Origin: Bacteroidota bacterium
Lineage (GTDB): Bacteria; Bacteroidota; Bacteroidia; NS11-12g; UBA9320
Length of the DNA: 64,000 nt
Direction of reading: 5' to 3'
NCBI GenBank assembly: GCA_018700895.1
Contig: JABIUV010000025.1
Location: 56,075 to 120,074 of the forward strand
Shown: piece after piece, positions 5,940-27,361 of the stretch
Layout of the letters: every line of letters starts with the position of its first letter
Numbering within the stretch: the first letter of the stretch is position 1
Made by a program: the position numbers and the translations under genes
The notes under the pieces: model-generated
Database searches by the model: none
The model's input: the letters and a program-made list of their open reading frames with translations, nothing else
What the model was told of the DNA's origin: nothing

Positions 5940-7679
5940 GTGTACAAAGGTATTTTAATTTTGAGCTTTGTGCTTATGGGTATATCCGCTAAGGCACAAC
6001 AATACACCTTCACTATGAATCAAGGTGCGGAGGCTACCCACCTTAAAGTATCAGACTCCTTACAAGCTTATCAGCTGCTAAACCGCCAACTTACCCAACT
6101 TAGAAACGAAGGTTATCTTGCGGCGTATGCAGATAGTCTATTGCAGCAAAACGACACACTGCTCAGCACTGTGCACAAAGGTTACAGGTACAAGGCTATA
6201 CACATCAATAGTCACAACATAAGCAGAGAATATCTAGCTCAGCAAAAGCATATAGGCCTAGACCTCGCAAGCTTTGGCCGTTTTCAGCAGCAACTTATTA
6301 CCCTACACGAAAACAACGGATTTCCATTTGCTCATCTCAAACTACAGGATAACTATGCCCGAGGTGATACGCTTTATACCACCTTGTTTTTTGATCCTTA
6401 TATCAAATTTGAGTATGATAGCATCGTATATAACGGGAGTGCTACTATATCTAAAACATACTTAGCCAAGTACCTCAATATAGAGCAGGGCAAACTTTAC
6501 GATGAATCGGTAGTGAAAACAATAGACCAAAAGCTACGTAACTTACCCTTGGTAAAAATGAAGGGAGCAAGTAGAATTGTTTTTTTTAGAGGCAAGGTGC
6601 GTGTTGTGTTAAAAATAGATGATAATATAACCGATAGACTAGATGGAGTAGTAGGATTGGCACCCAATAGTGCCAATAGCCAAGAAAATCAGTTGCTCAT
6701 TACAGGTGAGCTCAATATAGAACTCAATAACCTTTTCAAAAGCGGAAAACAACTGGAGCTTCATTGGCGAAATTACTTGCAAAACTCACAGAAACTAGAC
6801 CTTGGTTTCACCTACCCCTACTTATTCAATACGCGTGTAGGCATATCGAGCGAGTTTAATCTCAATAAGTTTGACACGCTATTTGTTAATCTGCAGAGTA
6901 AGCTTTCGCTGAGGTATCAGCAGCAGGGCAACAATTATGTGCAGGTTTACTACCAAAACGTCAATAGTAATTTGCTCAGTGCCGATACTTCGGCTGTACG
7001 AGTATCAAAAAAAATTCCTACCAACAATCCGTATACTATACGCAATTATGGTTTAGCCATTTTTCAGCAAGACTTAGATTACTTACCCAATCCTAGAAAA
7101 GGTTACCGCATACTTGCCGATGGAGCTATTGGCCAAAAGCAAATTGTACGCAATGCCGATATACGGCAAGTAAAATTTGCAAACAGCGACAACGGCAGCA
7201 TTATATCGGTATATGACACCGCTCAGCTCAAAAGTACACGCCTAGAGTTTAAAGTGGCCTCGTCTTATTTTATTCCTATAAAAAAACGTAGCACTCTACA
7301 CCAAAAATTATCCTTTCAAGGCCTATTTGCCAGCAACGTTTTTTTTAATGAGTTATATAACTTTGGAGGCTATTCGTCGCTTCGGGGTTTCGACGAGAAT
7401 GAGTTTTTTGCCAGCAAAATGCTTACCTACACCGCAGAGTATAGATACCTCATAGGCGAAAATAGTTATGTTGGTCTATTTGCCAATACAGCCTTGCTCG
7501 AGAATAAACTTGAAAGTGATGTACTGATATTTGACATCCCTTATGGTTTTGGTGTGTCGGCCAATATACAAGTTGGCAAAGGAATACTCAATTTGGCATA
7601 TGCATTAGGTAGTAGACAAGGCAACACCTTACAACTTAGTGCTGCAAAGTTTCACTTTGGTGTGGTCAATTATTTTTAG
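5940..7679 (+). CDS. Omp85/BamA-TamA-family outer-membrane protein
   Basis: Signal peptide, POTRA-like N-terminal region, C-terminal beta-barrel with YNFGGYSSLRGFDENEF surface-antigen (D15) motif. Confidence 0.65.
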   Translation: MYKGILILSFVLMGISAKAQQYTFTMNQGAEATHLKVSDSLQAYQLLNRQLTQLRNEGYLAAYADSLLQQNDTLLSTVHKGYRYKAIHINSHNISREYLAQQKHIGLDLASFGRFQQQLITLHENNGFPFAHLKLQDNYARGDTLYTTLFFDPYIKFEYDSIVYNGSATISKTYLAKYLNIEQGKLYDESVVKTIDQKLRNLPLVKMKGASRIVFFRGKVRVVLKIDDNITDRLDGVVGLAPNSANSQENQLLITGELNIELNNLFKSGKQLELHWRNYLQNSQKLDLGFTYPYLFNTRVGISSEFNLNKFDTLFVNLQSKLSLRYQQQGNNYVQVYYQNVNSNLLSADTSAVRVSKKIPTNNPYTIRNYGLAIFQQDLDYLPNPRKGYRILADGAIGQKQIVRNADIRQVKFANSDNGSIISVYDTAQLKSTRLEFKVASSYFIPIKKRSTLHQKLSFQGLFASNVFFNELYNFGGYSSLRGFDENEFFASKMLTYTAEYRYLIGENSYVGLFANTALLENKLESDVLIFDIPYGFGVSANIQVGKGILNLAYALGSRQGNTLQLSAAKFHFGVVNYF

Positions 7680-11897: not shown

Positions 11898-14618
11898 ATG
11901 AATAAAAGATCAGTACTATCTATTGCTTTTGCACTTGTTTTTGTAGCAGGAGCATTGCTTTACACTAATTCTTCGAACGAAGGAATCTACTCTCCACGTA
12001 CTAAAACTGAGCAAGGCATTGCTGGTTATGAAGCGTATTTGAAAACGGTTCGTGCAAATCAGACGACAGGGGTTGTAACCATAGATGACATCGAAGCTGT
12101 AAAAGCTGAAATAAAAGGGCAACAAAATGTTAAGTTTAAGGCGGATTGGCCACTCACTTGGGAATTTAGAGGCCCAGATAATGTTGGTGGACGAACAAGA
12201 TGTCTGGTGATTGACAAGGATGACCCAAGTATCCTGTACTCTGGTGGTGTTTCTGGTTCGGTATTTAAAAGTACAAACGGCGGTGGTTCTTGGTATCCGC
12301 TTACCATAGGCGAAGATAACTTTGGTGTGGTAAGTATGGCTCAAAATGATAAGGGGGAGCTTTTTTACGGTACAGGTGAAGCAGGTCTAACTTCTGCAAC
12401 TGGTGGTGAAAACGGTACGGCTGGTTTCAATGGAATGGGGATATTCAAATCTACCGATGGCGAAACATTTTCTCAATTAACAGGTTCTCAAGCATTCGGC
12501 AGTATTTTTATGCTCACGGTAGACCCTACTACTGATTTCATATACGCAGGGTCATCTAATGGTTTAAGAGTGAGTAAGGATGGCGGGACATCTTGGACGT
12601 TGGTGCGAGGTGGAACATGTCGTGATATCCAGTTTAACTCAAATGGTGTAGCCCTTGCAAGTATCGGTAATTCTATTTGGAGATCTACCACACCAGATGT
12701 AGGTTCATCATACGGAAATATTACGGATGTAGCGGGTAGCAGTAGAGCAGCAATAGGTTGGGCAGCTTCTGACCCAAATTATGCGTACGTAGTTACAGTA
12801 AGTTCTGTTGCTTTTGATGGTCAAACCTATGGTGGTGGTGCACTCTCAGGATTGTTCAGATCTACCGACGGCGGACAAACATTCACAGAAGAAGTAGACC
12901 AGATAAGCCAATTCTTTGCTCCATTTACTATCATTGGTTTGCAAGCACAAGGCGATTATGACATTGCCATCGGAGTTCACCCAAGAGATAAGGATCGTGT
13001 ATTCATTGGAGGTATAGAGTTTGCAGAATGGTCATTGCAAGAAGGGCCAAAAATTGTTGGGAACAAGTTCAGTTCACCTACCAACCCATTTGGAATTCAC
13101 TCGGACAAACACCTCATCAAATTTGATAACTCAGGCGAAGATCCTATTATGTATATCTGTTCAGATGGGGGAATAGCTCGTACGACAAACGCTGATTTAG
13201 ACAGATACAAAGATATCAATACGAACATGATAACTACGCAGTTTTACGCTATAGCTGCTGACGCAGAAGGACGTTTGCTAGGTGGTACTCAAGATAATAA
13301 CACTATGCTTCTTACAGGTGAGTCTTTCCCGCGTAAAATTGCACAAGACGTAATAGGCGGTGACGGTTTCCAAACAGCTATCAGTAAGTACGACGGCAAT
13401 TTTATGTTCGGTGAAAGCCAATATGGCAACCTAAGACGTTCTATAACTGGTGGGGGTTCTTTTGAGTCTATCTGGGATAATAGAATAAGAAGTACCTTTG
13501 GCAGTGCATCGCAGCCTACTAATTATTTCAATAATGCCCTGTGCTTATGGGAAAACCCTGATGTACTAGCGGAAGTAGAAACGCGTGATAAAACAGAAGC
13601 AGATGACTCATTGATCAATGCTAAGCTATACTTTGCTGCAAATGATGGAGTTTGGGTATGTAATAATGCACTTGGAAAACCACACGATGGTTCGGCACCT
13701 AAAGATTTTGGTGCTGTAAGGTGGTTTAGAATATCTAACGTAGGAAGAGTGCACTACTTGCATCCTACTAAAGACGGAAAGTCTCTATTTGTAGCGACTA
13801 CTAACGGACAGATTCACAGAATAGACGGATTGCTAGATGCTAACTTTGACACAACTATACTGGCGGTAAATAATGCAATTGCTTCAGAGCTTACCACCAC
13901 TCGAATCAATGGAAACCTTTCGCTGGGGAGCAGAACAGTTACTTCTATAGCCATAGATGAGAATGATCCTAACAGAGTAGTACTCACCGCAGGAAACTAT
14001 GGTAATACAAACTTTGTTTACGTAACTAATGATGCACTATCTGCATCACCTACCTGGACGAGTATTCAGGGGAATCTTCCTCGTTTCCCAGTTTACCACG
14101 CTGTAATTGCAGCTGATAATCCAGACATCATCGTGCTTGGCACTGAATTTGGAATATGGGCTACAAGCAACGGAACAGCTGGTACACCAACTTGGGCCGA
14201 GGCTCTAGAAGGCGTAGATTCAGATATGCCGTTTCCTAAAGTCCCAGTATTTCACTTAGCACAAGTAGTAAGCAAATCGTGGAGTGGACCTAGAATATAT
14301 GCAGGTACTCACGGTATGGGTATATGGGAGAGTAAGTCATTGCTATCTAGCATACGTAACGACAAAGAGCAGTTAGAAGAAACTAAATTGTCTACCTTCC
14401 CTAATCCAGCAAACAACTATGTGAATATATCATCTACCATCACCGGTAAGTACACACTTAATGTATATGACCTAAAAGGTACTCAAGTATATAGTACAGA
14501 GGGAACAAACAGTGGAACGATCAGAATAAACACCACTCAATTAGTAAGTGGAAACTATTTTGTAGAAGTTATAGGAGCAAACGACAAAGGTGTTTCTAAG
14601 CTTATAGTACAGCACTAG
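11898..14618 (+). CDS. T9SS C-terminal-domain cargo protein with BNR/Asp-box (sialidase or GH74-like) repeats
   Basis: Multiple S-x-D-G-G-x-T-W/F Asp-box motifs (STNGGGSW, SKDGGTSW, STDGGQTF). C-terminal TFPNPANNYVNISS...GNYFVEVIGANDKGVSKLIVQH is a type A T9SS sorting domain. Confidence 0.7.
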   Translation: MNKRSVLSIAFALVFVAGALLYTNSSNEGIYSPRTKTEQGIAGYEAYLKTVRANQTTGVVTIDDIEAVKAEIKGQQNVKFKADWPLTWEFRGPDNVGGRTRCLVIDKDDPSILYSGGVSGSVFKSTNGGGSWYPLTIGEDNFGVVSMAQNDKGELFYGTGEAGLTSATGGENGTAGFNGMGIFKSTDGETFSQLTGSQAFGSIFMLTVDPTTDFIYAGSSNGLRVSKDGGTSWTLVRGGTCRDIQFNSNGVALASIGNSIWRSTTPDVGSSYGNITDVAGSSRAAIGWAASDPNYAYVVTVSSVAFDGQTYGGGALSGLFRSTDGGQTFTEEVDQISQFFAPFTIIGLQAQGDYDIAIGVHPRDKDRVFIGGIEFAEWSLQEGPKIVGNKFSSPTNPFGIHSDKHLIKFDNSGEDPIMYICSDGGIARTTNADLDRYKDINTNMITTQFYAIAADAEGRLLGGTQDNNTMLLTGESFPRKIAQDVIGGDGFQTAISKYDGNFMFGESQYGNLRRSITGGGSFESIWDNRIRSTFGSASQPTNYFNNALCLWENPDVLAEVETRDKTEADDSLINAKLYFAANDGVWVCNNALGKPHDGSAPKDFGAVRWFRISNVGRVHYLHPTKDGKSLFVATTNGQIHRIDGLLDANFDTTILAVNNAIASELTTTRINGNLSLGSRTVTSIAIDENDPNRVVLTAGNYGNTNFVYVTNDALSASPTWTSIQGNLPRFPVYHAVIAADNPDIIVLGTEFGIWATSNGTAGTPTWAEALEGVDSDMPFPKVPVFHLAQVVSKSWSGPRIYAGTHGMGIWESKSLLSSIRNDKEQLEETKLSTFPNPANNYVNISSTITGKYTLNVYDLKGTQVYSTEGTNSGTIRINTTQLVSGNYFVEVIGANDKGVSKLIVQH

Positions 14619-14704: not shown

Positions 14705-15249
14705 ATATTCTCCTTTGTATGGGACATTTCCATCGAAAGAACCAAATCTCCTTACAATGACTATTTGGAAGTCGTTTGGTGCAATGGCATCAAAATGTTA
14801 AATACCCGAGATGCAAATTACGCGTTTAGTAATGGTTATAAGGTGTTTGAATATGCAATGAAGCAAATTACAGAACCGATAGATACAGCCGAGAACATAC
14901 TTATATTTGGTTTCGGATGCAGAAGTATTCTACATCTGTTAGAAAAAAATACAATTATCAAGGGAAAGTAGTAGGTGTAGAATATGATAACGAAATCATA
15001 CGCTTATATCATCAGCATTTTAAATCTAAATACACCTTAACACCTACCCTATATACCTCCGATGCAGAAGCATTCATATCCGTCGCAGATAACAGTACAT
15101 ACGACATCATATTTATTGATTTATTCATAGAATTAGATAACTCCCCATTGTTGCACAAACAACAGTTTCTGGAATCTTTAAAGAAGAAATGCACCAGCTC
15201 GAGCACTCTTGTATTTAATATCACAACGGTAAATCAAAGCGGGATATAA
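14705..15249 (+). pseudogene. spermidine-synthase-like (class I MTase fold) gene lacking a start codon and broken by a frameshift in an A7 run
   Basis: Frame 2 has ...SPYNDYLEVVWCNGIKMLNTRDANYAFSNGYKVFEYAMKQ...ILIFGFGCRSILHLLEKN. Frame 1 continues KVVGVEYDNEIIRLY...TYDIIFIDLF. The join is at gaaaaaaat (14942-14950); one extra A restores EKKYNYQGKVVGVEYD. No in-frame ATG, GTG or TTG upstream. A short ATG ORF at 14719 in frame 1 suggests a second shift. Confidence 0.45.
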
Positions 15250-15459
15250 ACTGCAGACAACTTGTGTACGGTGCTAGGTAGTCAATTTAAATCTGTGAGT
15301 AGAATGCCATTTCAAGAGCTTAATCAGATCATTATCGCAAATAATTAGCCATTATGTCATTTTTATTTGATTTAAAAGTTCTATTTGTGCCATTTTGGCA
15401 TTAATTATCGTAAGGAATGGCATTTGTCTATTACCCACTACAATAACAAAGAATAAAAA

Positions 15460-15897: not shown

Positions 15898-15913
15898 CTC
15901 ATAAAATATTTGA

Positions 15914-15947
15914 ACGGTGGGTGCATGGTGCACTCACCGTTTTTTTT
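15914..15947. terminator. bidirectional intrinsic terminator between convergent hsp20 (+) and the gld gene string (-)
   Basis: Hairpin cggtgggtgca-tgg-tgcactcaccg followed by T7 on the plus strand and preceded by an A-rich tract. Confidence 0.55.
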
Positions 15948-15976: not shown

Positions 15977-16711
15977 TCACTTTTGAACTACAGTACCCGT
16001 GCTCAGTTGCTTATTTACAATTTCATAATCCGTAGCCCGACCATACTGTTCAATATTTCCAGTATTATAAATATTTAAGTAATACCCTTTAGTAGCATTC
16101 ATTGTGCAGACTATTGGGGTATGACTATCTAAGAAAACCTCGTCACAGGCAACGCCTTTTGCATCTAAGTTTGACACGTCTTCTATAGATGCTTTGAGCG
16201 ACCTTAGTCGTCCGTGTAGAATAGTACTCGCGGAATTACGTGATTGTACAAAAATCTCTCTGCCATTAACATTCAACTCAATGTCTGATAGTGCATTATG
16301 GTAGATCTCTAATCGGTCAAAGGCAAGAGTTTCCTTTATAGTAACCTCAGCAATGGACTCTACTTTGAGCATACTGAGGGTACTGATATAAACATCCACA
16401 TCTAGCGAGTAATCAAATGAACGCAGGAAGTTGCACGTATTATTATTGGTAAGTGTAAGCTCACCATCTTTCACATCTCTACCTATGCTACTGAGTAAGT
16501 TCTCGGGACCGTGAAGAATAATCTTTCCAGCTTGGGACGAGTCCTGTATAAGCCGCATCTTAATTCTATCCTCCACCCTAATTTTATCAAAAGGAAGTGC
16601 TAGGTAATCCACTACAGTAGCTGGGTCTCCCAATGATTTCAAACACCTATTGTCCTCACTGCAACTCACTATACAGCAAACAATAAACGCTATGTAGGCT
16701 AACCTTTTCAT
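15977..16711 (-). CDS. lipoprotein, DUF2807/GIN-head (putative adhesin beta-helix) domain
   Basis: Lipobox FIVCCIVSC-SED. Repeated beta-strand pattern (ILHGPENLLSSI, VDVYISTLSMLKVESIAEVTI, ILHGRLRSLKASIEDVSNLDA) typical of DUF2807. Start codon overlaps the upstream stop by ATGA. Confidence 0.45.
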   Translation of the reverse strand: MKRLAYIAFIVCCIVSCSEDNRCLKSLGDPATVVDYLALPFDKIRVEDRIKMRLIQDSSQAGKIILHGPENLLSSIGRDVKDGELTLTNNNTCNFLRSFDYSLDVDVYISTLSMLKVESIAEVTIKETLAFDRLEIYHNALSDIELNVNGREIFVQSRNSASTILHGRLRSLKASIEDVSNLDAKGVACDEVFLDSHTPIVCTMNATKGYYLNIYNTGNIEQYGRATDYEIVNKQLSTGTVVQK

Positions 16712-17772
16712 AACGTATAACCTACGCCTATTTCAAAAAAATCTGCCACGCCCCTATGAAAACGTAACGTACCTTGAGTACTTAAATGTTGCGAAACACG
16801 ATATACCAAACCTATACGCTGACTTAGAGCATTTTTTAGCACTGCAGGCTTGTATAGGTAAGCTCCCACCTCGGTCAGTACATCTACCTTGCCAAATGTC
16901 CACTGAAAACCTCCTGCTATGGCAACTTCACTTTTATCTAGCAGAGAAATAGAACCTAATGGATACGATGCATCTTCCGAATATTTATAAGATTTGTCCA
17001 AAGTGTAATCTACTCCCATCCTCCAAGCCTTCACCAAAGAAACATGTCTTAAGGCTCGTGCTTGTAATCCAAAATTATAGAAGTCTTGCGGATTAGCAAA
17101 GTTGCGTTGCTTTTTGCCATATATCAATGTTAAACTAGATGTCCATTGTGAAGGATTTAACCGTATTGAATCTTCCGAAGCTACACGACCTAGACCAAAC
17201 CCATAACGAGCCGTAAGATGAGGAATATTGTACCCTAAATTAGGAACTTTAAATGCCGCATTTGAGAAATGTGTAATACCAATGCCTAATTCTACATAGC
17301 TATGTTGTTTATCTAAATCAATATGGCTAAGAAGTCCAAAATGCATTGTACCGTTAAGGTGACTGCCTATTGCCTGATTCCGTCTATTTTCTAATGGTTC
17401 AAATTTCTCTGTAAGATACGCCAAACCTGCCCCCATCTTAAACCTTAAGTCTACATGTTTACGTTGTATTAAGGCAAATTTAATATGCGTAAATCCACTT
17501 ACTGCGTGACCGGTAACATCAGAGCCCAAATTATTGTAACCAACTCCGAAACCTACAACGGGTTTTCTGTAGTAGCCTCCCCAATCGGTTTCAGTTCTAT
17601 CCAACTCATACGAAACATTCACGCCCCAATTATGTGCAGCCAGACCCTTAATGTCAGCTCTATGTGCAAGTAAGAAGCCAGGAGTATAAGCCACACCAAG
17701 ATAACGGCTATCCTGTGCAAAAGCACCAACCAATATCATTAGGGACACTATAACTACCGCAATTCTTCTCAT
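16708..17772 (-). CDS. outer-membrane beta-barrel protein, acyloxyacyl-hydrolase (PagL-like) family candidate
   Basis: Signal peptide MRRIAVVIVSLMILVGAFAQ. Alternating beta-strand pattern with C-terminal FFEIGVGYTL. Internal GIGITHFSNA resembles the H-x-S-N catalytic motif of PagL-type lipid A deacylases. ATG directly abuts the gldG stop codon (TAGATG). Confidence 0.4.
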   Translation of the reverse strand: MRRIAVVIVSLMILVGAFAQDSRYLGVAYTPGFLLAHRADIKGLAAHNWGVNVSYELDRTETDWGGYYRKPVVGFGVGYNNLGSDVTGHAVSGFTHIKFALIQRKHVDLRFKMGAGLAYLTEKFEPLENRRNQAIGSHLNGTMHFGLLSHIDLDKQHSYVELGIGITHFSNAAFKVPNLGYNIPHLTARYGFGLGRVASEDSIRLNPSQWTSSLTLIYGKKQRNFANPQDFYNFGLQARALRHVSLVKAWRMGVDYTLDKSYKYSEDASYPLGSISLLDKSEVAIAGGFQWTFGKVDVLTEVGAYLYKPAVLKNALSQRIGLVYRVSQHLSTQGTLRFHRGVADFFEIGVGYTL

Positions 17773-19554
17773 CTACTTCCATCTGCGACGCCTGTACCAG
17801 GCATTTCCAAAACCAAAAAGCAGAACTAAAACAATAGGGAGTATCATATTGAGGGACTGCCAAAAAAATCGTTCTTGTTTTATCTTACTTTTATCAAGCA
17901 ATCGCAGCACTACTTCTCTGCTCCGCACTTCTATCAAGTTAGACTCATCGCACAGAAAGTCAACGCAATTCAAAAAGAATTTTTTATTAGCAAACTCAAT
18001 AGGTGTCCCAAATTGTTTAGAAGCAAAATGATCATATCCTAAAGGGTAAACTTGCCCGTCTGACATCACTTGATTTCGTATCAAGTCTCCATCACCAATA
18101 ACAATCATAGCATTATTCTTCACACCTTCTTTGTAAGGTATATCAAACGCTCGTTTTACACCTTCTCTGTATCTAAACGGACTTGTAAATTCTCCTTCTA
18201 TAAGCACCGCAGATATTTTGTTTCCATTCACAAAGTTGGCAGGATTAGGTCTATCCTTGAGCATATTGAGTGATATGAAAACGGGATTAGCCGCTACTCT
18301 AGATTGTGGTGAAGACCGAAGCAAGACTGTTTTATTCAGCGATTTACGATTTGTCGTATCTAAGGTGCTACAATACCTACCCCATACATTTTCAAGGTTC
18401 TTACTCACAGGATTATCGTCTACAGCATTAAATAATGGATAGAACACCCACGGGAAGAACCCTGGTCTGTTAGTTTGTTGATTAATAGCTGGGATACCGT
18501 GACTTTGCAGATCTTGCACGAGCGTGTTCTGTACTTTTACACCGTAATGAAATAGAAGGTCGTCTAGATTATGCGAATGATTAATGGTAGACACCTCACC
18601 ATATTTGGCTATGGAATCCATTTCCGCAAGCAAGCTTTCTACCAAGAAGATAACCTTGCCCCCATTCATCACATATTGGTCTAGCACAAATTTCTCTGGC
18701 TCGGTAAACTTACTTCGGGGCTTAGCTATGATAACGCCACTGTAACGTTGTAGTTTTTTTACAAGACCTTCTACCAGTATGCTGAATACAGGTTTATCTG
18801 GATTCTCAGCTACATCTTTGGCAAATACCTTGTAGCAATTACTGTCGGTGAGATTAAGGTTGATACGCTCCAGATCATAAAACTCTCCAAGTGCTGCACT
18901 GATATCGGCCGTTTCTATATCGGTGAGCTCGCCATGACCAGCTGTGAATGCCAGTTTTAGTTCTCTGCCTGCTAGCCCCCTTCGCAGTGCTGTGCCTATT
19001 TCATACTCCAGCAGCTCTATTGATCCGTTTATCTCTACTTCCAGAGGTTTACCAAACTCGCGTTTTAATAGGTTCAGCGGATATTCTTTGCCTTTGTAAA
19101 AAACAACACCTGCAGGAATAATATACTTTTCGGAAGGTGCTTCGTCTGGCTTTGTTTCAGGTCTTTCTATGCGTAATCCTTTGCCATAAAATTCTTTTAG
19201 GATGGCCTCTTTTTCCTTCAGTTCTTTATCTGCTAATACATCCTCAAATTCGAAATGAATATCACCTCCTGATGCCAGTTTAAACTCATTGAGCATATCT
19301 CGAGTTGCAGATTGTAATCGCTTATAATCAAGCGGTAAATCCCCGTCTAAAAATATTGTTACGTAGGCATCTTCTTCTAGTTTGTCAATGAGATTTTTGG
19401 TGGATTCGGAGAGTGTATACCTTTTTTCCTTGGTCAAATCAAAACGCCTATAGACCTGAGAGGAGAGTATACTTACAATAGCTATAATCCCCACAAAGAG
19501 TCCTACCTGCTTAAGCAGTTTTTTATTCGCTCGTATTTTTTTGATCCCTACCAT
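17773..19554 (-). CDS. gldG: gliding-motility-associated ABC transporter component GldG
   Basis: 593 aa with N- and C-terminal TM anchors and a large periplasmic domain. Follows gldF with a 7-nt start/stop overlap. Confidence 0.7.
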   Translation of the reverse strand: MVGIKKIRANKKLLKQVGLFVGIIAIVSILSSQVYRRFDLTKEKRYTLSESTKNLIDKLEEDAYVTIFLDGDLPLDYKRLQSATRDMLNEFKLASGGDIHFEFEDVLADKELKEKEAILKEFYGKGLRIERPETKPDEAPSEKYIIPAGVVFYKGKEYPLNLLKREFGKPLEVEINGSIELLEYEIGTALRRGLAGRELKLAFTAGHGELTDIETADISAALGEFYDLERINLNLTDSNCYKVFAKDVAENPDKPVFSILVEGLVKKLQRYSGVIIAKPRSKFTEPEKFVLDQYVMNGGKVIFLVESLLAEMDSIAKYGEVSTINHSHNLDDLLFHYGVKVQNTLVQDLQSHGIPAINQQTNRPGFFPWVFYPLFNAVDDNPVSKNLENVWGRYCSTLDTTNRKSLNKTVLLRSSPQSRVAANPVFISLNMLKDRPNPANFVNGNKISAVLIEGEFTSPFRYREGVKRAFDIPYKEGVKNNAMIVIGDGDLIRNQVMSDGQVYPLGYDHFASKQFGTPIEFANKKFFLNCVDFLCDESNLIEVRSREVVLRLLDKSKIKQERFFWQSLNMILPIVLVLLFGFGNAWYRRRRWK

Positions 19555-20276
19555 TTTCTGCTTCCTAATGTCACGTAAGTTAAGCCCAAGAACACACTCA
19601 TTAAAGACCCAAAGTACACCAAATCACGCGTATCTACCACGCCCCTGCTTATGGAGTCATAGTGCAGTTGTATGCCCAATGACTGTACAGCACTATCCCA
19701 ACTACCGAACAATGCGAGATTGCTAATTTGCTGAAAGCCTACATAAAAAAAGAAGCATAAGAACATGCTAAGAATGAAGGATACAATCTGATTGGGTGTA
19801 ACTGCCGAAGCAAAAACGCCAATAGAACAATAACACGATCCCAATAGCACTAGACCAATATAAGAACCCCAAGTAGCACCCACATCTATATTTCCCTTAG
19901 GTAAACCCAGTTGGTACACGGAATAAAAATATAGCAACGTAGGCAAAATGGCAAAAATCACTAATACAACTGATGCTAAGAATTTGCCCAAAATGATTTG
20001 AGTATCGGTAATAGGCTTAGTACTAAGTGTCTCAAACGTACCTTGTTTTATCTCCTCTGAAAATGAACGCATCGTAATAGCCGAAATTAAAAAGATAAAC
20101 ACCCATGGAGCCATAAAGAAAAGTACATCAAGATTAGAATAGCCTTGCGAAAGCACATTCCCATCAGCAAATACCCACGTAAATAGACCTATCACGAGCA
20201 AAAAAACGATAATCACCACATAGGCAATTAAGGAACTCAGGAAACTCCTGATCTCTTTTTTAAATATGCTATACAT
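19548..20276 (-). CDS. gldF: gliding-motility ABC transporter permease GldF (ABC-2 type)
   Basis: 242-aa six-TM ABC-2 permease. Start overlaps the gldA stop by 8 nt. Confidence 0.75.
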   Translation of the reverse strand: MYSIFKKEIRSFLSSLIAYVVIIVFLLVIGLFTWVFADGNVLSQGYSNLDVLFFMAPWVFIFLISAITMRSFSEEIKQGTFETLSTKPITDTQIILGKFLASVVLVIFAILPTLLYFYSVYQLGLPKGNIDVGATWGSYIGLVLLGSCYCSIGVFASAVTPNQIVSFILSMFLCFFFYVGFQQISNLALFGSWDSAVQSLGIQLHYDSISRGVVDTRDLVYFGSLMSVFLGLTYVTLGSRKW

Positions 20277-21183
20277 TTTTTGTCAACTCTTGAAATACTG
20301 CCTCTAATGATTCTTTTATTTCTTTTTGTTCTACAATTACGGTATTGCTCTCCACGGCAAATTTAAAGAGTATGGCCGCTAAGTCTGCTCCTTGGTTGGC
20401 AGATATAGTAAAGCCCCCTTCTGCAGCAGATTCTACTTTTTTCACTCCTTGTAGCTGCAATAGACTAGCAGCATCTACCACATCTCTAAACCGAATATAA
20501 ACCTCCTTATTGCCTGACGAGATTTGTTGCTTAACATTACTTACCGTATCATCTGCCACTATACTCCCTCTATTGATAATAATAACACGATTACACATAG
20601 CCTCTACCTCCTGCATAATATGGGTAGATAGTAATATGGTTTTCTCTTTGCTCAGATTGGCGATAAGTTGTCTTATCTCACTCATCTGGTTTGGGTCTAG
20701 TCCACTTGTAGGTTCATCCAAGATAAGTACATCAGGATTATTTAGCAATGCTTGAGCTAAGCCCACTCGTTGCCGATATCCTTTTGATAGTTGAGATATC
20801 TTTTTGTGCCGCTCCACGCTCAAACCCGTTTTGTTTATGACACGCTCTATTTCCTGCTTGGCATTTTTGAGCTGGTATATATCTGCATTAAACTGAAGGT
20901 ACTCCACAATGAACATATCATCATAAAGTGGATTCAGCTCTGGCAGATAACCTATTCGTTTCTTAACAGCAAGAGGATCTTTTGCTACATCTATACCCAT
21001 AACCTTAGCCGTACCGCTAGTAGCAGGTATAAATCCACTCAATATTTTCATAGTGGTACTCTTCCCCGCTCCATTAGGCCCTAAGAATCCTACTACCTCT
21101 CCAGTACCAACACTGAAAGAGATATTATTAATGGCTTTTTGTTCGCCATATACCTTAGTGAGTTGGTTTATCTCTATAGACAT
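20269..21183 (-). CDS. gldA: gliding-motility ABC transporter ATP-binding protein GldA
   Basis: Walker A GPNGAGKST, ABC signature LSKGYRQRV, Walker B LILDEP. N-terminus MSIEINQLTKVYGEQKAINNISF is GldA-like. Confidence 0.8.
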   Translation of the reverse strand: MSIEINQLTKVYGEQKAINNISFSVGTGEVVGFLGPNGAGKSTTMKILSGFIPATSGTAKVMGIDVAKDPLAVKKRIGYLPELNPLYDDMFIVEYLQFNADIYQLKNAKQEIERVINKTGLSVERHKKISQLSKGYRQRVGLAQALLNNPDVLILDEPTSGLDPNQMSEIRQLIANLSKEKTILLSTHIMQEVEAMCNRVIIINRGSIVADDTVSNVKQQISSGNKEVYIRFRDVVDAASLLQLQGVKKVESAAEGGFTISANQGADLAAILFKFAVESNTVIVEQKEIKESLEAVFQELTKNV

Positions 21184-21195
21184 ACTTGCTTTTGT

Positions 21196-24069
21196 TTAAC
21201 GCTTGATTATAACGTTGAAACGTGCCGTACTATTTCGGTTAGATAACAATAAGGTGTATATGCCCGAAGATATCGTTGAAACATTGAGATTGACTTCCGT
21301 ACCGTTTACTGCTTTGTCTAGCAGGACACTCCCTTGATTATCTATCAACTTTATACGTTCTGCAGTATTTATTCCTTGTGTTTTTACATGAATAAAGTTT
21401 GAAGCTGGGTTTGGATAAATAGCATATCGCGTTTTGTCTAGCAATAGGACATTTACTGCACTTAGTATTTCCATTTCATCAAAACCAGTACATCCATTAG
21501 AATCTGTCACGGTAACGGAGTACTTCCCTTTGTCTTTCACACTAATAGATTCTAAGGTCTCGCCCGTACTCCAATCGTATCTGTCAAAGTCAGGACCTGG
21601 TGTTAATATGAGTGGGTCATTCGTGCGAAGCGAAGTGTCATTTCCAAGACTTATAGTTGGACTTTGATACACAAATACATCTATACTATCGGTATAAAGG
21701 CAACCTTGTGTACTCTCTACGGTAAGGTAGTATAATCCGGGACCACTTACATTGAAAGTTTGCATACCTGTACCGTTGAACCACGTATAATCCGCCATGC
21801 CATTTGGCCCCACTAGTTGGAATGCGATGTTATCACAAGCTCCTGTATCATTGCCCAATGAAAATTGAGGTAGTGGATGTACCGTAAAGTCTAAGGTATC
21901 ATAACTCGGACAACCAAAGCTGTTATAAGCTTCTACAGTGTATCTGCCCGCCTGAGAAATAGTATACTCAAAGTTATTAGTGATCACGCCATTCCAAATA
22001 AACCCATTCAGAACACTTGGAGCAAATAAAACAACTTCGTCGCCATCACAAGCACTGGTGTCCGGACCTATACTAAATGGCGAGTTAGGATTAGTAAGCA
22101 CCTGCACCTCGTCTGTATATTCACATCCAAAACTGTCTATTACCATCAAAGAATGCACTTGTGAATTGTTGGTAGTAAAGGTCCTATTTGTAGTGCTCAA
22201 TCCATTCCAAGTATAACTAGCCATATCAGCTGGACCTTCAAAGGTAATGCTCAAGTTTTCACATATAGTGGTGTCGTTACCCAATGAGAATGCAGGAATT
22301 TCCTTATTCAATACAGCAACGGTATCATAATAAAAGCATCCATTACTACTTATTGTTTTTAGGTAAAATGTATCTGCAGCCGAAACCACTCGCGTTTGGT
22401 TATTAGTCGTCCCGCTTGTTCCTTTCCATTCATAAAAAATCATATCACTTGCCGCCGTTAAGCTTAACGTATTTCCATCGCAGAAAAACGTGTCTGACAA
22501 TGCTGACACAGCAAGTCTCGAATTTACTTTTACGTACACTTCAGCACTGTCTGGAGTACATTTACCATCTGACGAACTAACAACTAGCTTGTATGCCGTA
22601 CTTATTGTTGGGGAAACACTAGGATTAGAGCTTGTACTAGTAAAGGATGGTGCCGTCCAGTTATATAAATAGCCCGAAGTACTACTTCTGCCTAGTGAGG
22701 CAAAATCTCCCTCACATATCGTAATAGTATCCGCACTTACACGTGCCTCAAGCGTACAACATAAGGTCGAATCATTATTGATTTCTGTATTTCTTACCAA
22801 GGTAATCAATGGATAAACCGTAAGTGTATTAGTGTTACTGTTAAAAGTGTCGGAGGACAAAAACAACGGGCCAAAGTCCAACACTTCATTTTGGAAAACA
22901 CATGATACGCCGAATTGACCATTTAACTTAGATATGTAAAGATCTTCAGATGATGTGGCCCCTAATGAGTTTCCTGAGCTAAACAACGAGTACCCGGTAC
23001 TCAATCTACCTGTGATAGCCATTCCTGATTGACCATCAGCAAATGCACCACCCACAGATAATGCTGGAGGAGCTCCAGTCAATGAGCTAAATTCAAAAAC
23101 CAGAGAAGTATTTACCGAACTAGAGGATGCAGACGAAGTAGCAACCATCCACTTGTTACTGCTTATCGATTTGAAATCTAGTAAACTATCATACCCCGGA
23201 ACACCAAAGTAATATGCATCGGTATTGGTCAAATTAGTATCGATGCTCATCAAGAACATATCATACGTACCATCAAAACCTTGATCAACATTGCCGCCAA
23301 CCGTATAATTATTGGCTGATTCTTGCACTATTTTAGTGGCAAACTCATTATGTACTGTCCCAATGTTCTTATGAATAAGGACCGTTCCGCCACTGTTCAA
23401 TGCGAGCAAACTTATATCAACATCGCCACTACCACCTATTGCAGTAGAGTCATATGCTGTACTTCCTACTACGACTACTCTCCCCAATTGGTCTTCTATG
23501 ATAGAATTTCCTACATCAGCACCTTCATTTCCATAGTGTTTTGTCCAAAGTACAATACCATTGTTGGTGAGTCGAGAAACCAAAATATTTTGACCCATGG
23601 TGTCTTGGTCTATATATCCTGTAGCATAAATATCTCCATTTATACTTTCCGCTACACCGAGAAAATGCTCTACACTATCTGTTCTTACTGAGCGTGTCCA
23701 TTGCAAAACACCTGTACTACTAACCTTTGTCACAAAAGCATCTTCCGATATAGAGTATCCATTCGTGTACCCGCATATCACAAATCCATTGTCAGAAGTA
23801 GATGTCATAGCCGTTGCTACATCGTCCGACGTGCTTCCATATCTATAACTCCATAGGGTGTTGCCTAAGCCGTCAGTTTTAGTCAATTGGAAATCTGCAT
23901 GACCTGCACTGTTCGTGTTAGATAGCAGGTAATAGTCACCATTATCCGTCTGAATTGCATCTACAGCTCTATCTGCCGAGTCATTATTAATAACCTTTAA
24001 GAAGCTACTGTTTTGGGCATATACAAAAGCACAAACACCGCAACTCAATGCCAATAAAATTTTTCTCAT
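21196..24069 (-). CDS. large T9SS cargo protein with N-terminal beta-propeller-type repeats and about six tandem two-Cys Ig-like modules
   Basis: Signal peptide MRKILLALSCGVCAFVYAQ. Modules start FSLGNDTTICENL / FSIGPDTSACDGD / FSLGNDTGACDNI / ISLGNDTSLRTND. C-terminal YAIYPNPASNFIHVKTQG...GIYTLLLSNRNSTARFNVIIKR is a T9SS type A sorting domain. The stop lies 12 nt upstream of the gldA start. Confidence 0.7.
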   Translation of the reverse strand: MRKILLALSCGVCAFVYAQNSSFLKVINNDSADRAVDAIQTDNGDYYLLSNTNSAGHADFQLTKTDGLGNTLWSYRYGSTSDDVATAMTSTSDNGFVICGYTNGYSISEDAFVTKVSSTGVLQWTRSVRTDSVEHFLGVAESINGDIYATGYIDQDTMGQNILVSRLTNNGIVLWTKHYGNEGADVGNSIIEDQLGRVVVVGSTAYDSTAIGGSGDVDISLLALNSGGTVLIHKNIGTVHNEFATKIVQESANNYTVGGNVDQGFDGTYDMFLMSIDTNLTNTDAYYFGVPGYDSLLDFKSISSNKWMVATSSASSSSVNTSLVFEFSSLTGAPPALSVGGAFADGQSGMAITGRLSTGYSLFSSGNSLGATSSEDLYISKLNGQFGVSCVFQNEVLDFGPLFLSSDTFNSNTNTLTVYPLITLVRNTEINNDSTLCCTLEARVSADTITICEGDFASLGRSSTSGYLYNWTAPSFTSTSSNPSVSPTISTAYKLVVSSSDGKCTPDSAEVYVKVNSRLAVSALSDTFFCDGNTLSLTAASDMIFYEWKGTSGTTNNQTRVVSAADTFYLKTISSNGCFYYDTVAVLNKEIPAFSLGNDTTICENLSITFEGPADMASYTWNGLSTTNRTFTTNNSQVHSLMVIDSFGCEYTDEVQVLTNPNSPFSIGPDTSACDGDEVVLFAPSVLNGFIWNGVITNNFEYTISQAGRYTVEAYNSFGCPSYDTLDFTVHPLPQFSLGNDTGACDNIAFQLVGPNGMADYTWFNGTGMQTFNVSGPGLYYLTVESTQGCLYTDSIDVFVYQSPTISLGNDTSLRTNDPLILTPGPDFDRYDWSTGETLESISVKDKGKYSVTVTDSNGCTGFDEMEILSAVNVLLLDKTRYAIYPNPASNFIHVKTQGINTAERIKLIDNQGSVLLDKAVNGTEVNLNVSTISSGIYTLLLSNRNSTARFNVIIKR

Positions 24070-24105: not shown

Positions 24106-24675
24106 CTAGTCACTTAGCTGCCATCTTTTGGCAACTTTTACGGAGTATTCCAAAAAGGCCTTAAAACCAGCATTAAACGCTTCATTGTCCAGCAGATTAC
24201 CTTCTTCGTCTATACACTTGGTCACTTCTTGTGCTTCGAACGTACGCGGGCTGGTGATACTATTCAAGTCAAATACATTAAAAATCTTATTAAAAACATA
24301 CCCTAACTGAACGGCAGGCATTCTACCTCCACGGCCTGTACTTACACCTACTGTAGACACCACCTTATTATCAAAAATATGCTTATAGGCTGCTCCCGCC
24401 AACTGATGAATCGTATTTATGATTTCGGCACTTGGAAACCAATTATACTCCGGGCTAAGTACAATGAGTAAATCACACTCATTTATCGTTTTTATCAAGT
24501 GCTGTTGAAAAGGTGTTTCTGCATCGGGATTCACCCAACCTTCTGCAAAATTAGGTAAGTCATAGCCCTGAAAATCAACTATTTCACTTGAGCCATGCAA
24601 TTTTTGAAGTGCCTTTGCAACACGAAGTGTATTGTTCCCTTTTCTGGCTGAGCCAGATATAATTCCTAATTTCAT
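24106..24675 (-). CDS. NADPH-dependent FMN reductase-family (flavodoxin-like) oxidoreductase
   Basis: MKLGIISGSARKGNNTLRVAKAL N-terminal flavodoxin-like P-loop pattern. 189 aa. Confidence 0.7.
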   Translation of the reverse strand: MKLGIISGSARKGNNTLRVAKALQKLHGSSEIVDFQGYDLPNFAEGWVNPDAETPFQQHLIKTINECDLLIVLSPEYNWFPSAEIINTIHQLAGAAYKHIFDNKVVSTVGVSTGRGGRMPAVQLGYVFNKIFNVFDLNSITSPRTFEAQEVTKCIDEEGNLLDNEAFNAGFKAFLEYSVKVAKRWQLSD

Positions 24676-25205
24676 TTATCTAATTTAATGTAAGTTGCCA
24701 ATGCCTTTACCGTTTTATAATTGCGTGCAAAGTCAATAAACCATAGTTTGCTGAAGGGCTTACTAGCCAAAGTAAACACTCCATCTTGCTGGTATACTAC
24801 TACCCTATCAGGACTCAAAAAGTGAACTTTCTTTTTAGCTGAGATGACACCGTTATCGATTACAACATTTTTATATTTCTGGTGGTTTACCATCCAATCA
24901 TACACTCCTTCTATGGGTTTATCACTTCGCACCTTCACCACTTGGTGTGTTTTCATATAATTCTCAGCGGGTGCATCCTCCACTTCATCAAAACTGAGGG
25001 CATGATACATACTCACCAAAAAACCGATAGCAAAAGATACGAAAAATGCTACATTCAAGCTGTTTTGGATAAAAGTGAAACCGTATTTCCAACCACCTTC
25101 TTTGGTGATTACAACCACAAGAGCGATTGGTAAAACCATTAAGGCTACTCTAATCAAATACGTAAGTATAATTACAAATTTGAATAGTAATTTTTGTATA
25201 TTCAT
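24672..25205 (-). CDS. small membrane protein (two or three TM segments), unknown function
   Basis: Hydrophobic N-terminal half (FKFVIILTYLIRVALMVLPIALVVVI, VAFFVSFAIGFLVSMY) and a soluble C-terminal half. Overlaps the neighbours by 4 nt and 0 nt. Confidence 0.45.
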   Translation of the reverse strand: MNIQKLLFKFVIILTYLIRVALMVLPIALVVVITKEGGWKYGFTFIQNSLNVAFFVSFAIGFLVSMYHALSFDEVEDAPAENYMKTHQVVKVRSDKPIEGVYDWMVNHQKYKNVVIDNGVISAKKKVHFLSPDRVVVYQQDGVFTLASKPFSKLWFIDFARNYKTVKALATYIKLDK

Positions 25206-26051
25206 TTATAGTACTCTTAATAAAACAGCGTATGCCTGTTGTGGTTTGTTTTGAGCCAAAAAGTCTTTGGCTAGCGAAAATGAAGGTGTATCAATGACAG
25301 CCAAAGCTTTCTTAATATCCTCATCAGTTGGCAAGGAGGCCATATTGCCCAATATCCCTAATTCATTGCCTGTGAGTTGGTTGCTCGTTCGTATTTGCTC
25401 GGGTAAAGCATCCACTCCTACACCTATAGTAGTAATGGGTTTGTCTACCTCAAACATCGAAGCATCATTTGCTCTGCAATACCAATTGCCACCCATTCTA
25501 CTTACTAGGTCTATTTTTTGTTGGTCTACCATTTGGTTTTCGTCCAGTACTTCTTCAGCGATATGTATTTTTTGTACTTCACATATCACTAGATTACCAG
25601 CACCACCATCTTTCCCTAATTCTTTCACTTCCAACACCTTACACTCTATCTGAACGGGCGACTCTTTTACTCTATAAGGTCGAATAGTATCCGAAGCTAC
25701 AGGAGTAAATCGGGCTTTTTCAAACTCATCTACACCCGCCTCAAATGGAGAGCTCGTCAAGCTCATTTGGTGCACCATATCATAGGTTACTACATTAATC
25801 ACTACCTCGGCTACGTCCTTCACATTGTCGTGTGTATTTTTAGTGGTATTTGTCCTTCCGCTTCTAGCTGGTGAGAAGATAAGAATAGGTGGATTAGCAC
25901 TGAACACATTGAAAAAACTAAATGGTGCCAGATTTCTATTGCCTTCCTTATCCACGGTACTTGCAAACGCGATAGGCCGCGGACCAATACTACCGAGCAG
26001 GTAGTGGTGCAATTTGGGAACGGGTAATTCTTTGGGGTCTAGAGTCAACAT
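25206..26051 (-). CDS. flavin-reductase-like (FMN-binding split-barrel) protein with about 80-aa C-terminal extension
   Basis: PRPIAFASTVDKEGNRNLAPFSFFNVFSANPPILIFSP is the flavin reductase-like domain signature. Start lies 2 nt after the tyrS stop. Confidence 0.65.
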   Translation of the reverse strand: MLTLDPKELPVPKLHHYLLGSIGPRPIAFASTVDKEGNRNLAPFSFFNVFSANPPILIFSPARSGRTNTTKNTHDNVKDVAEVVINVVTYDMVHQMSLTSSPFEAGVDEFEKARFTPVASDTIRPYRVKESPVQIECKVLEVKELGKDGGAGNLVICEVQKIHIAEEVLDENQMVDQQKIDLVSRMGGNWYCRANDASMFEVDKPITTIGVGVDALPEQIRTSNQLTGNELGILGNMASLPTDEDIKKALAVIDTPSFSLAKDFLAQNKPQQAYAVLLRVL

Positions 26052-26053
26052 AC

Positions 26054-27361
26054 TTATTTCTTTATTAATAAAAATTTGTTCTTCTTTCCTCGCTGTAATA
26101 ATACGTATTTACCATTGATTAGGTCAGAGGTCGATAAATTGAAATCTTCGGTTATTTTCTCACTGTTAACAGATACCGAATTCTCTTTGAGAGCTCTTCT
26201 CGCTTCACTTTTACTAGCTAAAAATCCTGAGTATCCGCAAATATCTATTATATTAATTCCCTCTATATCATCCACTTCTGCACTTTTAACACCATCAAAT
26301 ATGGAAAGAAAGTCTTTTTCGGAAAGGCTGCGTAAACTATCTGCAGTTCCCTTCCCAAATAATATCTGAGTAGCAGCCAAAGCAGTATTACATCCCTCTT
26401 CTCCGTGTACCCAAGTGGTGATATACTTGGCAAGCTCTTTTTGCAACGCACGAGCATGTGGAGCTTCTTTATGCTCAACTATCAAACTGTGTATGAACGA
26501 CTTATCGTGCAGAGTGAATATTTTGATATATCGCTCTGCGTCCTCATCACTCGTATTCATCCAAAACTGGTAAAACTCATATGGGCTCGTTTTGTCCGCA
26601 TCTAGCCATACATTACCACCTTCGCTCTTACCAAACTTACTACCGTCAGCCTTAGTAATAAGTGGTGCAGTCATTGCAAAACCTTTATTCTGACCTTCTG
26701 CTACATCATCACTCGCACTTCCTTTTCTACGGATAAGTTCTGTTCCGGTCACTATATTTCCCCACTGGTCGCTTCCACCCATTTGGAGTTTTACATTCTT
26801 CTCTTTCCACAAGTGGTAAAAATCATATCCTTGTACAAGCTGATAGCTGAACTCCGTGAAACTCATTCCATCCTCCAATCTATTTTTTACAGAATCTTTG
26901 GCCATCATGTAGTTTACCGAGATATGCTTGCCTACATCTCGGATAAAATCTAAAAAGTTAAAATCCTTGAACCAGTCATAGTTATTCACCATCTCAGCAC
27001 TGTTCCCACCACAATCAAAATCCAAAAACTGTTGCAATTGCTTATGTACACATGCTACATTATGATTGAGTGTGTCTAAGTCGAGTAGAGTTCGTTCTGC
27101 TTTCTTCCCACTTGGGTCTCCCACCATACCTGTGGCTCCACCTACTAGTGCAAAAGGTTTATGGCCAGCACGTTGCAAATGTACTAGCAATATAATAGGC
27201 ACCATATTACCAATGTGTAGTGAGTCTGCCGTAGGATCAAAACCTACATATCCGCCTACCATCTCTTTCATCAGTAATTCTTCGGTACCCGGCATATCTT
27301 GGTGGTGCAAGCCACGCCATTTTAACTCTTCTATGAGGTTATATTTTGGTGTAAATGACAT
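26054..27361 (-). CDS. tyrS: tyrosine--tRNA ligase
   Basis: HIGN (HIGH) motif, KFGKS (KMSKS) motif, C-terminal S4-like domain. 435 aa. Confidence 0.9.

Follow-up and report, generated by a model that had tools for sequence, protein, structure and literature searches.

A putative PagL-family outer-membrane module encoded behind gldAFG in an uncultured Bacteroidia lineage

The window analysed here, a stretch of 64,000 nucleotides from a Bacteroidota contig, carries on its minus strand the genes gldA, gldF and gldG followed by genes for an outer-membrane protein (OMP) and a lipoprotein. Direct reading of this five-gene block (15977-21183) gave open reading frames and junctions that match exactly the string of overlaps and zero gaps described in the original prediction. 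The block and its immediate surroundings comprise the following features:

21196-24069, minus strand: T9SS cargo gene, 957 aa, with a type A CTD (Por_Secre_tail PF18962/TIGR04183 at residues 884-956)
20269-21183, minus strand: gldA, ABC transporter ATPase
19548-20276, minus strand: gldF, ABC-2 permease
17773-19554, minus strand: gldG, accessory subunit with a large periplasmic domain (Pfam ABC_transp_aux and DUF7088)
16708-17772, minus strand: OMP gene, 354 aa, with a signal peptide, an N-terminal PagL-fold 8-stranded barrel and a C-terminal second 8-stranded barrel (predicted)
17227-17271, minus strand: putative active-site stretch of the OMP, H168-F-S170-N171 ... P177-N178-x-G180-x-N182, aligned to PagL H126/S128/N129/E140
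16711-17166, minus strand: C-terminal barrel of the OMP (residues 203-354), in which H339 is near-invariant and position 344 acidic, covered by no Pfam family
15977-16711, minus strand: lipoprotein gene, 244 aa, one DUF2807 (GIN / 'Toastrack') beta-helix domain
15912-15942, no strand assigned: GC-rich hairpin in the interval where the lipoprotein and hsp20 genes converge

Along the block the junctions measure -8, -7, 0 and -4 nt: gldA and gldF overlap by 8 nt (ATGTATAG), gldF and gldG share 7 nt (ATGGTAG), the stop codon of gldG is followed at once by the start codon of the OMP gene (TAGATG), and the stop of the OMP gene overlaps the start of the lipoprotein gene by 4 nt (ATGA). The packing does not open with gldA, as had been supposed, and already begins at tyrS (27361), so that the tight string consists of 10 genes running from 27361 to 15977 in the order tyrS, flavin reductase, hypothetical, FMN reductase, the 957-aa T9SS-CTD protein, gldA, gldF, gldG, OMP and lipoprotein, with successive gaps of 2, 0, -4, 36, 12, -8, -7, 0 and -4 nt. 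Gaps of zero or less are found in 10 of the 35 same-strand gene pairs of the window (median gap 36 nt), and six of those 10 lie inside the string. Taken alone, tight packing is a weak argument, because tyrS and the flavin reductases are equally packed in the same string. The junctions are also conserved in related loci: the gldA/gldF spacing is -8 nt in 23 of 23, gldF/gldG is -7 or -4 nt in 22 of 23, gldG/OMP lies between -13 and +9 nt in 24 of 27, and OMP/lipoprotein is -4 nt in 24 of 27 loci of the window's clade. Because these gaps are maintained across ~27 related genomes, co-transcription or translational coupling of the five genes is, on sequence grounds, very likely. The T9SS cargo gene precedes gldA in the same orientation with 12 nt between them, a gap that in 20 related loci ranges from -1 to 13 nt, and the two genes probably share a transcript.

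The hairpin beyond the lipoprotein gene is a terminator-like site of 14 pairs detected on the plus strand, and its minus-strand RNA folds with -20.8 kcal/mol (z = -4.1). It is followed by a clean T-run on the plus strand alone, that is, on the hsp20 side, the minus-strand tail being only A/T-rich. Of the bidirectional terminator previously placed at 15914-15947, the hairpin is thus real and the clean T-run is confined to one direction; the element likely marks the transcript end. An Rfam search of the window returned a single tRNA and no RNA element that would account for the junctions, while a scan for sigma-70-type promoters, a model unsuited to Bacteroidota promoters, gave 22 sites against 25 expected from shuffled sequence.

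GldF (TIGR03518, 326.6 bits against a cut-off of 288.5) and GldG (TIGR03521, 501.6 bits against 389.85) pass their equivalog models and are encoded by adjacent genes, and GldA matches TIGR03522 over its full length (1-301) with 401.6 bits, 1 bit below the cut-off of 402.6, the next-best model scoring 234 bits and the GldA proteins of relatives 439-483 bits. To our knowledge, the substrate of GldAFG has been unknown since the 1990s. [quoted passage not shown]

The OMP belongs to the PagL family. Residues 50-190 match Pfam PagL (PF09411) with 49.7 bits against a gathering cut-off of 23, the same domain is present in all 120 OMP homologues among the matches listed, and the predicted model of the N-terminal half superimposes on the closed 8-stranded PagL (PDB 2ERV) at 1.6 A. 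H168, S170 and N171 match the catalytic His126 and Ser128 and the neighbouring Asn129 of PagL, and the earlier PagL guess, based on a GIGITHFSNA motif, is upheld by the profile, the fold and these residues together. Among 97 family members none departs from H168, S170, N171, P177, N178 or N182, and G180 is Gly in 93 of 97. The genome scan pattern itself demanded H-[FY]-S-N...P, so that invariance of those residues in L001-L080 is partly by construction; the H, S and N of the pattern are likewise invariant in a word-based homologue set. The third residue of the PagL triad, Glu140, is not kept: it aligns with N182, a position outside the scan pattern and Asn in 97 of 97 proteins, and therefore neither activity nor substrate can be transferred confidently from PagL.

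The full-length model of the OMP has 16 strands. The C-terminal half modelled alone also folds as a barrel (pLDDT 91.7, pTM 0.83), and these predictions show the protein as two complete barrels in one chain and not as one 16-stranded barrel. Among sequences clustered at 50% identity, the profile of the C-terminal barrel gathers 1666 cluster representatives. An origin of the second barrel by recent duplication of the PagL domain was considered and rejected, hhalign finding no relation between the two halves (probability 1%).

This architecture bears directly on the trans-envelope machine put forward in the original prediction, in which GldAFG, the periplasmic domain of GldG, the lipoprotein and the OMP would line up into a continuous conduit of the Lpt or MacAB-TolC kind, its exit pore being the OMP. 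Translational coupling of all five genes, the large periplasmic domain of GldG and the vacant place of the outer-membrane partner of GldAFG, which is unknown (PMC9127263), would all accord with such a conduit. However, exit ducts of the TolC/LptD type provide an open channel, either a large barrel or a TolC-type duct, and the predicted fold of the OMP has neither; we consider an export machine of this kind highly improbable.

The gene that follows encodes a lipoprotein with an IVSC lipobox (Cys17, 16661-16663), residues 40-225 of which match DUF2807 (PF10988) with 86.5 bits against a cut-off of 24.2 (E = 2e-24), a PDB match being 3pet, named 'putative adhesin' (E = 6e-7). Across the ~70 lipoprotein homologues listed, the lipobox Cys is accompanied by a second Cys 5-8 residues on. 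Acidic residues follow the lipid-modified Cys (C-S-E-D), and we take them to resemble the surface-export signals of Bacteroidota lipoproteins.

The OMP and DUF2807 genes are adjacent in 83 of 101 loci with very diverse flanks, and in 53 of 69 loci the two reading frames share 4 nt (ATGA) where the OMP gene stops and the lipoprotein gene starts. No gld gene lies within 6-8 kb in 54 of the 101 OMP loci, and the sister clade of the window's lineage likewise has the pair without gld genes. Judged by this distribution, the OMP and lipoprotein are an autonomous module, common across Bacteroidota; they represent a large family with a fixed two-barrel architecture and a usual ATGA overlap, of which the literature searched holds no description. 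Scans of metagenomes gave no matches with the Shiella OMP alone as query and 10 loci with a small OMP alignment, gld genes standing beside 0 of 10. Some contexts of the pair are, by their gene content, LPS-related: in Fulvivirga lutea and in one metagenome contig kdsB immediately precedes the pair, and two Flavobacterium genomes have rmlBACD upstream and an ArnC-like GT2, a formyltransferase, DegT and PMT_2 downstream.

These contexts help to weigh a non-enzymatic alternative, in which the lipoprotein would be an adhesin, the double barrel its anchor or export helper, and co-expression with gldAFG and a T9SS cargo would serve adhesion for gliding. Such a surface role would suit the acidic C-S-E-D stretch, the T9SS cargo gene directly upstream of gldA, the DUF2807 structures deposited as 'putative adhesin' and PGN_1547, a DUF2807 protein of P. 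gingivalis proposed to be an adhesin, whose mutant shows defects in biofilm formation and in attachment (PMC10949514). However, the same fold is also tied to envelope-stress systems and not to adhesion (bioRxiv 10.1101/2020.09.24.301986), the kdsB and rml/Arn-like neighbours point to LPS chemistry, and the invariance of His-x-Ser-Asn...Asn in all 97 OMPs, imposed in part by the scan pattern, would argue for catalysis over anchoring. Overall, we find a purely adhesive module quite improbable.

Where gld genes do accompany the OMP family, they do so in three geometries. The co-directional gldG-pair arrangement is that of the window's uncultured clade, one monophyletic group; gldA-F-G diverge from the pair in three Cytophagales-type genomes (Shiella aurantiaca, L093 and L102); and gldA converges on the OMP gene or the pair in two Flavobacteriaceae, Flavobacterium kingsejongi and Winogradskyella ursingii. 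The gld genes of the divergent and convergent cases all score above NCBIfam cut-offs, and the three gld-linked groups occupy three separate regions of a neighbour-joining tree of the 97 OMPs. 'GldA-like' neighbours in L050 and L083-L085 are not GldA and proved to be ~560-aa two-domain ABC ATPases. The Flavobacteriaceae arrangement sits in a conserved metH-MTHFR...pheA block and is tail-to-tail, and therefore does not imply co-regulation. A search with GldG, meant to sample gldG contexts elsewhere, returned only matches of at least 70% identity from the same clade and is uninformative beyond it. Synteny with gldG, as originally proposed, holds throughout the window's clade, and the OMP family stands directly beside gldAFG or gldA, in different geometries, in two further lineages; the idea that the two proteins are specific partners of GldG did not survive, given the 54 loci and the sister clade in which the pair lacks gld genes. 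Literature searches on DUF2807, PagL with gliding, gldA with acyloxyacyl hydrolase, and GldG with lipid A retrieved no description of the pairing.

How much the linkage means depends on whether it could have arisen by neutral packing, an independent housekeeping pair having landed behind gldG in a streamlined genome and sharing its transcript and not its function. In the window's clade the whole neighbourhood of ~17 kb around the join is collinear, unrelated genes included, and the linked OMPs are monophyletic, which points to a single join; the conserved adjacency there counts as one event, possibly neutral. The presence in the same string of tyrS, two flavin reductases and the T9SS cargo gene at gaps of 0-36 nt is in line with this explanation, as are the 54 gld-free loci. 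What speaks against it is the recurrence of gld linkage in two other lineages, divergent and convergent: by a rough estimate (no formal test) that assumes ~20 distinct contexts, each with a chance of ~0.003 of a gld gene within two genes, ~0.05 gld adjacencies would be expected and 3 are observed. We regard neutral packing as possible but doubtful.

The explanation that we prefer, and to which we give about even credence as a whole, is that the five genes would form the closing part of a single long and densely packed transcript and that the pair would form a self-contained outer-membrane module, made of a putative PagL-family serine esterase (an 8-stranded barrel plus the second barrel) and its translationally coupled lipoprotein. 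The putative enzyme would most likely cleave an ester-linked acyl chain off lipid A or off some other lipid of the outer leaflet, the lipoprotein would be its partner or its regulator and may dock on the second barrel, and the OMP would not be an outer-membrane exit duct for the transporter. The module would have joined the 3' end of gldAFG once in this uncultured marine Bacteroidia lineage, and the similar juxtapositions in Cytophagales-type genomes and Flavobacteriaceae suggest that it and GldAFG may act in the same envelope process, presumably outer-membrane lipid or LPS homeostasis supporting the gliding/T9SS apparatus. Fold, residues and gene context make a lipid-remodelling module recurrently linked to GldAFG plausible, and from them we infer the enzymatic activity, the substrate, the role of the lipoprotein and the functional dependence on GldAFG. 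The alternative initially offered, a unit that remodels lipid A in connection with gliding or T9SS, fits the evidence best, with its function still putative. More speculatively, GldAFG itself might handle an envelope lipid or LPS-related molecule with the double barrel and the Toastrack lipoprotein as its outer-membrane-side partner; we consider this unlikely, and if true it would explain the destabilisation of gliding/T9SS lipoproteins in gldA/F/G mutants. The recurrent genomic link between GldAFG and an apparently catalytic OMP with its lipoprotein is a concrete, testable lead on the role of the transporter, and cultured genera open to genetic work carry the pair (Flavobacterium, Winogradskyella, Fulvivirga and Marivirga).

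Comparison with known systems sets the module apart in several respects. OMPLA (PldA), an outer-membrane phospholipase A, uses a His142-Ser144-Asn156 triad, whose His-x-Ser...Asn spacing we take to equal that of H168-S170-N182. Both would be outer-membrane lipid hydrolases; OMPLA itself has 12 strands in its barrel and is active as a dimer, and the family and structure searches gave no sequence or fold match between it and the OMP. With PagL, the lipid A 3-O-deacylase of Pseudomonas aeruginosa, the OMP shares ~19% identity; unlike PagL, it has Asn in place of Glu140, carries in the same chain a further 8-stranded barrel unrelated to the first, and has, in nearly all cases, an overlapping gene for a DUF2807 lipoprotein directly downstream. 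Two 8-stranded barrels per chain are also the arrangement of the 8-8 multi-barrel OMPs predicted by Solan et al., who report them as common in Bacteroidetes (bioRxiv 10.1101/2021.02.17.431615; the text makes no mention of PagL). Like the DUF2807/GIN/'Toastrack' proteins (PDB 3PET, 3LJY, 4OPW; LiaG/LiaF-type), the mature lipoprotein is a single beta-helix domain; known members are structural-genomics 'putative adhesins' or parts of cytoplasmic-membrane stress systems, and the literature searched describes no fixed partnership of a DUF2807 protein with a PagL-family barrel. The transporter corresponds to GldAFG of F. johnsoniae, GldF and GldG scoring above the equivalog cut-offs and GldA 1 bit below, and gldF and gldG are adjacent as in Flavobacteriia (PMC5682007). 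In F. johnsoniae, however, gldA (Fjoh_1516) lies far from gldF and gldG (Fjoh_2722/2721) (PMC9127263), whereas here all three share one string; the gene after gldG in F. psychrophilum is dnaN (PMC5682007), whereas here the OMP/lipoprotein pair lies downstream; and a T9SS cargo gene stands upstream of gldA in the window's string.

The five minus-strand reading frames of the original prediction (15977-21183; gldA, gldF, gldG and the genes of an outer-membrane protein, OMP, and a lipoprotein) were borne out with their junctions when ORFs and overlaps were re-read, but the string proved longer than described. Gene spacing over the whole window places it at the end of a compact run of ten minus-strand genes, from 27361 to 15977, that reaches back to tyrS:

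26054-27361, minus strand: tyrS, first gene of the run
25206-26051, minus strand: flavin reductase
24672-25205, minus strand: hypothetical gene
24106-24675, minus strand: FMN reductase (FMN_red)
21196-24069, minus strand: 957-aa T9SS cargo protein with a type A CTD
20269-21183, minus strand: gldA, 401.6 bits (NCBIfam cut-off 402.6)
19548-20276, minus strand: gldF, 326.6 bits (NCBIfam equivalog cut-off 288.5)
17773-19554, minus strand: gldG, 501.6 bits (NCBIfam equivalog cut-off 389.85)
16708-17772, minus strand: OMP gene, 354 aa; Pfam PagL (PF09411) at residues 50-190, 49.7 bits against 23
15977-16711, minus strand: lipoprotein gene, 244 aa; Pfam DUF2807, 86.5 bits against 24.2

The Pfam scores turn the PagL and DUF2807 guesses, of which PagL was originally marked as unverified, into family assignments, and GldA, 1 bit under its cut-off, is nevertheless far ahead of every other model. 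Successive gaps in the run are 2, 0, -4, 36, 12, -8, -7, 0 and -4 nt: gldA and gldF overlap by 8 nt (ATGTATAG), gldF and gldG by 7 nt (ATGGTAG), the OMP start directly abuts the gldG stop (TAGATG), and the last two genes overlap at ATGA. The run is unusual for the window, containing six of its ten non-positive same-strand gaps against a median gap of 36 nt. Since this packing also joins genes of plainly unrelated function, however, overlaps alone are insufficient as a functional argument. The three genes closest to the T9SS cargo gene stay in this order in 17 related loci, with tyrS lying outside the fetched flanks. The proposed bidirectional terminator corresponds to a GC-rich hairpin at 15912-15942 (RNA fold z = -4.1), with a clean T-run on the hsp20 side only.

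Elsewhere in the window, on the plus strand, lie two more envelope genes, for an Omp85-family protein (5976-7679, 567 aa) and an 865-aa protein with TPR/PD40/OmpA domains (37356-39953), and the gene of a second large T9SS cargo protein (11898-14618, 906 aa), in which Pfam finds no domain besides Por_Secre_tail at 834-904 and whose position is kept in 24 related loci. A methyltransferase-like gene (14705-15339, plus strand) is split by a frameshift near 14948, with homologue residues 8-88 in frame 2 and 90-218 in frame 1; its relatives are single ORFs of ~219 aa, so that the split marks a pseudogene or else a fault of the assembly. Scanning the 36 window ORFs revealed no additional gld or spr genes.

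OMP relatives were found at 80 loci when one genome per GTDB species was scanned, and metagenomes and look-ups of named genomes brought the total to 102. The OMP gene is followed directly by a DUF2807 gene in 83 of 101 loci, with the ATGA overlap in 53 of the 69 measured. Because this adjacency persists amid widely differing flanks (mazG in Crocinitomicaceae and other Flavobacteriales, a sigma-factor gene in another group, thyA/alr in Marivirga, pyrH/ksgA in one Weeksellaceae genome), the pair is an autonomous module.

In a profile alignment with PagL, OMP residues H168, S170 and N171 fall on His126, Ser128 and Asn129, whereas the triad residue Glu140 is replaced by N182. None of the 97 collected family members differs at H168, S170, N171, P177, N178 or N182, although the collecting pattern itself demanded H-[FY]-S-N...P, leaving N178 and N182 as positions outside that demand. 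The outer-membrane phospholipase OMPLA has a His-x-Ser ... Asn triad of the same spacing. With triad-type residues invariant and spaced in this way, the putative active site looks complete, though departing from PagL.

The full-length AlphaFold2 model (26 homologues; pLDDT 87) comprises a signal peptide and 16 strands. Modelled alone, the C-terminal 152 residues form a confident 8-stranded barrel (pLDDT 91.7, pTM 0.83) whose fold matches are generic small outer-membrane barrels only, and no sequence similarity is detectable between the two halves; together these observations lead us to predict a tandem of two small barrels. Such an architecture is predicted to be common in Bacteroidetes (Solan et al., bioRxiv 10.1101/2021.02.17.431615). 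With E <= 1e-10 as threshold, the C-terminal profile retrieved 1666 cluster representatives, and in almost every one the match falls at residues ~215-365 of a ~360-aa protein. The family is large, with a fixed architecture. In the second barrel (16711-17166, minus strand), K221, D259, H339 and D344 are invariant in the 26-sequence alignment; across the family H339 is His in 96 of 97 members and position 344 is Asp in 82 and Glu in 14 of 97. Polar residues of this kind are unexpected in a mere membrane anchor and could form a second site or a lipoprotein-binding surface.

The mature lipoprotein is a single DUF2807/GIN domain; a related structure from Bacteroides fragilis, 3pet, was deposited under the name 'putative adhesin'. 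Nearly all homologues adjoining the OMP carry a lipobox Cys and a second Cys 5-8 residues on. Published accounts of DUF2807 differ: for P. gingivalis PGN_1547 it is taken as an adhesin (PMC10949514), and elsewhere it is placed in 'Toastrack', a beta-helix superfamily belonging to envelope-stress systems (bioRxiv 10.1101/2020.09.24.301986).

The idea that GldAFG and the pair build an Lpt- or MacAB-TolC-like conduit is not supported by the predicted OMP structure, as two 8-stranded barrels would offer no channel. The best-supported reading makes the last two genes a module for lipid hydrolysis at the outer membrane, in which the lipoprotein would be partner or regulator and the active-site geometry and inter-barrel arrangement are predicted. 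The neighbourhoods of the pair suggest lipid A/LPS chemistry: Fulvivirga lutea and one metagenome contig have kdsB directly upstream of it, and in two Flavobacterium genomes (L094 6001-12644, L097 6001-12584) the pair sits between rmlBACD and Arn-like genes (ArnC-like GT2, formyltransferase, DegT aminotransferase and PMT_2, ArnT-like, transferase), a cluster resembling a pathway for glycosylation of lipid A or LPS. These contexts and the hydrolase module favour the lipid A-remodelling alternative of the original prediction, whose tie to gld is suggested but unproven. In F. lutea and a related contig the gene immediately after the pair is FMN_red/flavodoxin-like (L098 7826-8356, L101 7856-8386); the window's string also has an FMN_red gene, possibly by coincidence.

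Synteny with gldG holds throughout loci L001-L029 (OMPs 40-69% identical), where the whole string, from T9SS cargo through gldA-gldF-gldG-OMP-lipoprotein to a convergent hsp20, is kept with conserved junction gaps. Their OMPs form one monophyletic clade without an unlinked member (three seeming exceptions are contigs that stop short of gldG), and collinearity extends over about 17 kb around the string, so the linkage there represents one event. It does not extend to the sister clade, in which the pair occurs without gld genes. A divergent gldA-gldF-gldG string (all above cut-offs) adjoins the pair in Shiella aurantiaca, L093 and L102, while the link is absent from related Marivirga, Rhodocytophaga and Pontibacter genomes. 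At Cytophagales-type loci (L048 7258-7962, L093 6257-6958) that string begins with a short-chain dehydrogenase gene facing the OMP over a 39-42 nt gap; a DUF4340-like gene comes after gldG, and in L093 dnaN is next. In Flavobacterium kingsejongi and Winogradskyella ursingii, a genuine gldA (482.7 and 455.6 bits) converges tail-to-tail on the OMP or pair; no gldA was found within 6 kb in Leeuwenhoekiella, which has the same metH-MTHFR block. Its locus (L100 6001-10939) holds two double-barrel OMP copies separated by an amino-acid permease, the second with its DUF2807 gene before rather than after it.

In a neighbour-joining OMP tree the gld-linked state occupies three separate regions. A serious neutral explanation is that a packed super-operon took up a housekeeping module on one occasion and that the two other juxtapositions are accidental; in most genomes the pair and the gld genes lie apart, and the gene after gldG in Flavobacterium psychrophilum is dnaN (PMC5682007). 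By a rough estimate, not a formal test (~20 distinct contexts, each with ~0.003 chance of a gld gene within two genes), ~0.05 gld-adjacent cases would be expected against the three seen. That the module adjoins gldA or gldAFG in several lineages suggests, without proving, a shared envelope process. All functional statements made here are inferred from sequences, structure predictions and the order of genes. The literature searched held no description of the fixed PagL-barrel plus second-barrel architecture, an obligate overlapping lipoprotein partner of the OMP, an Asn-type triad in a PagL-like OMP or the recurrent link of the pair to gldA/gldAFG; GldAFG, PagL, DUF2807 and multi-barrel OMPs are each already known.
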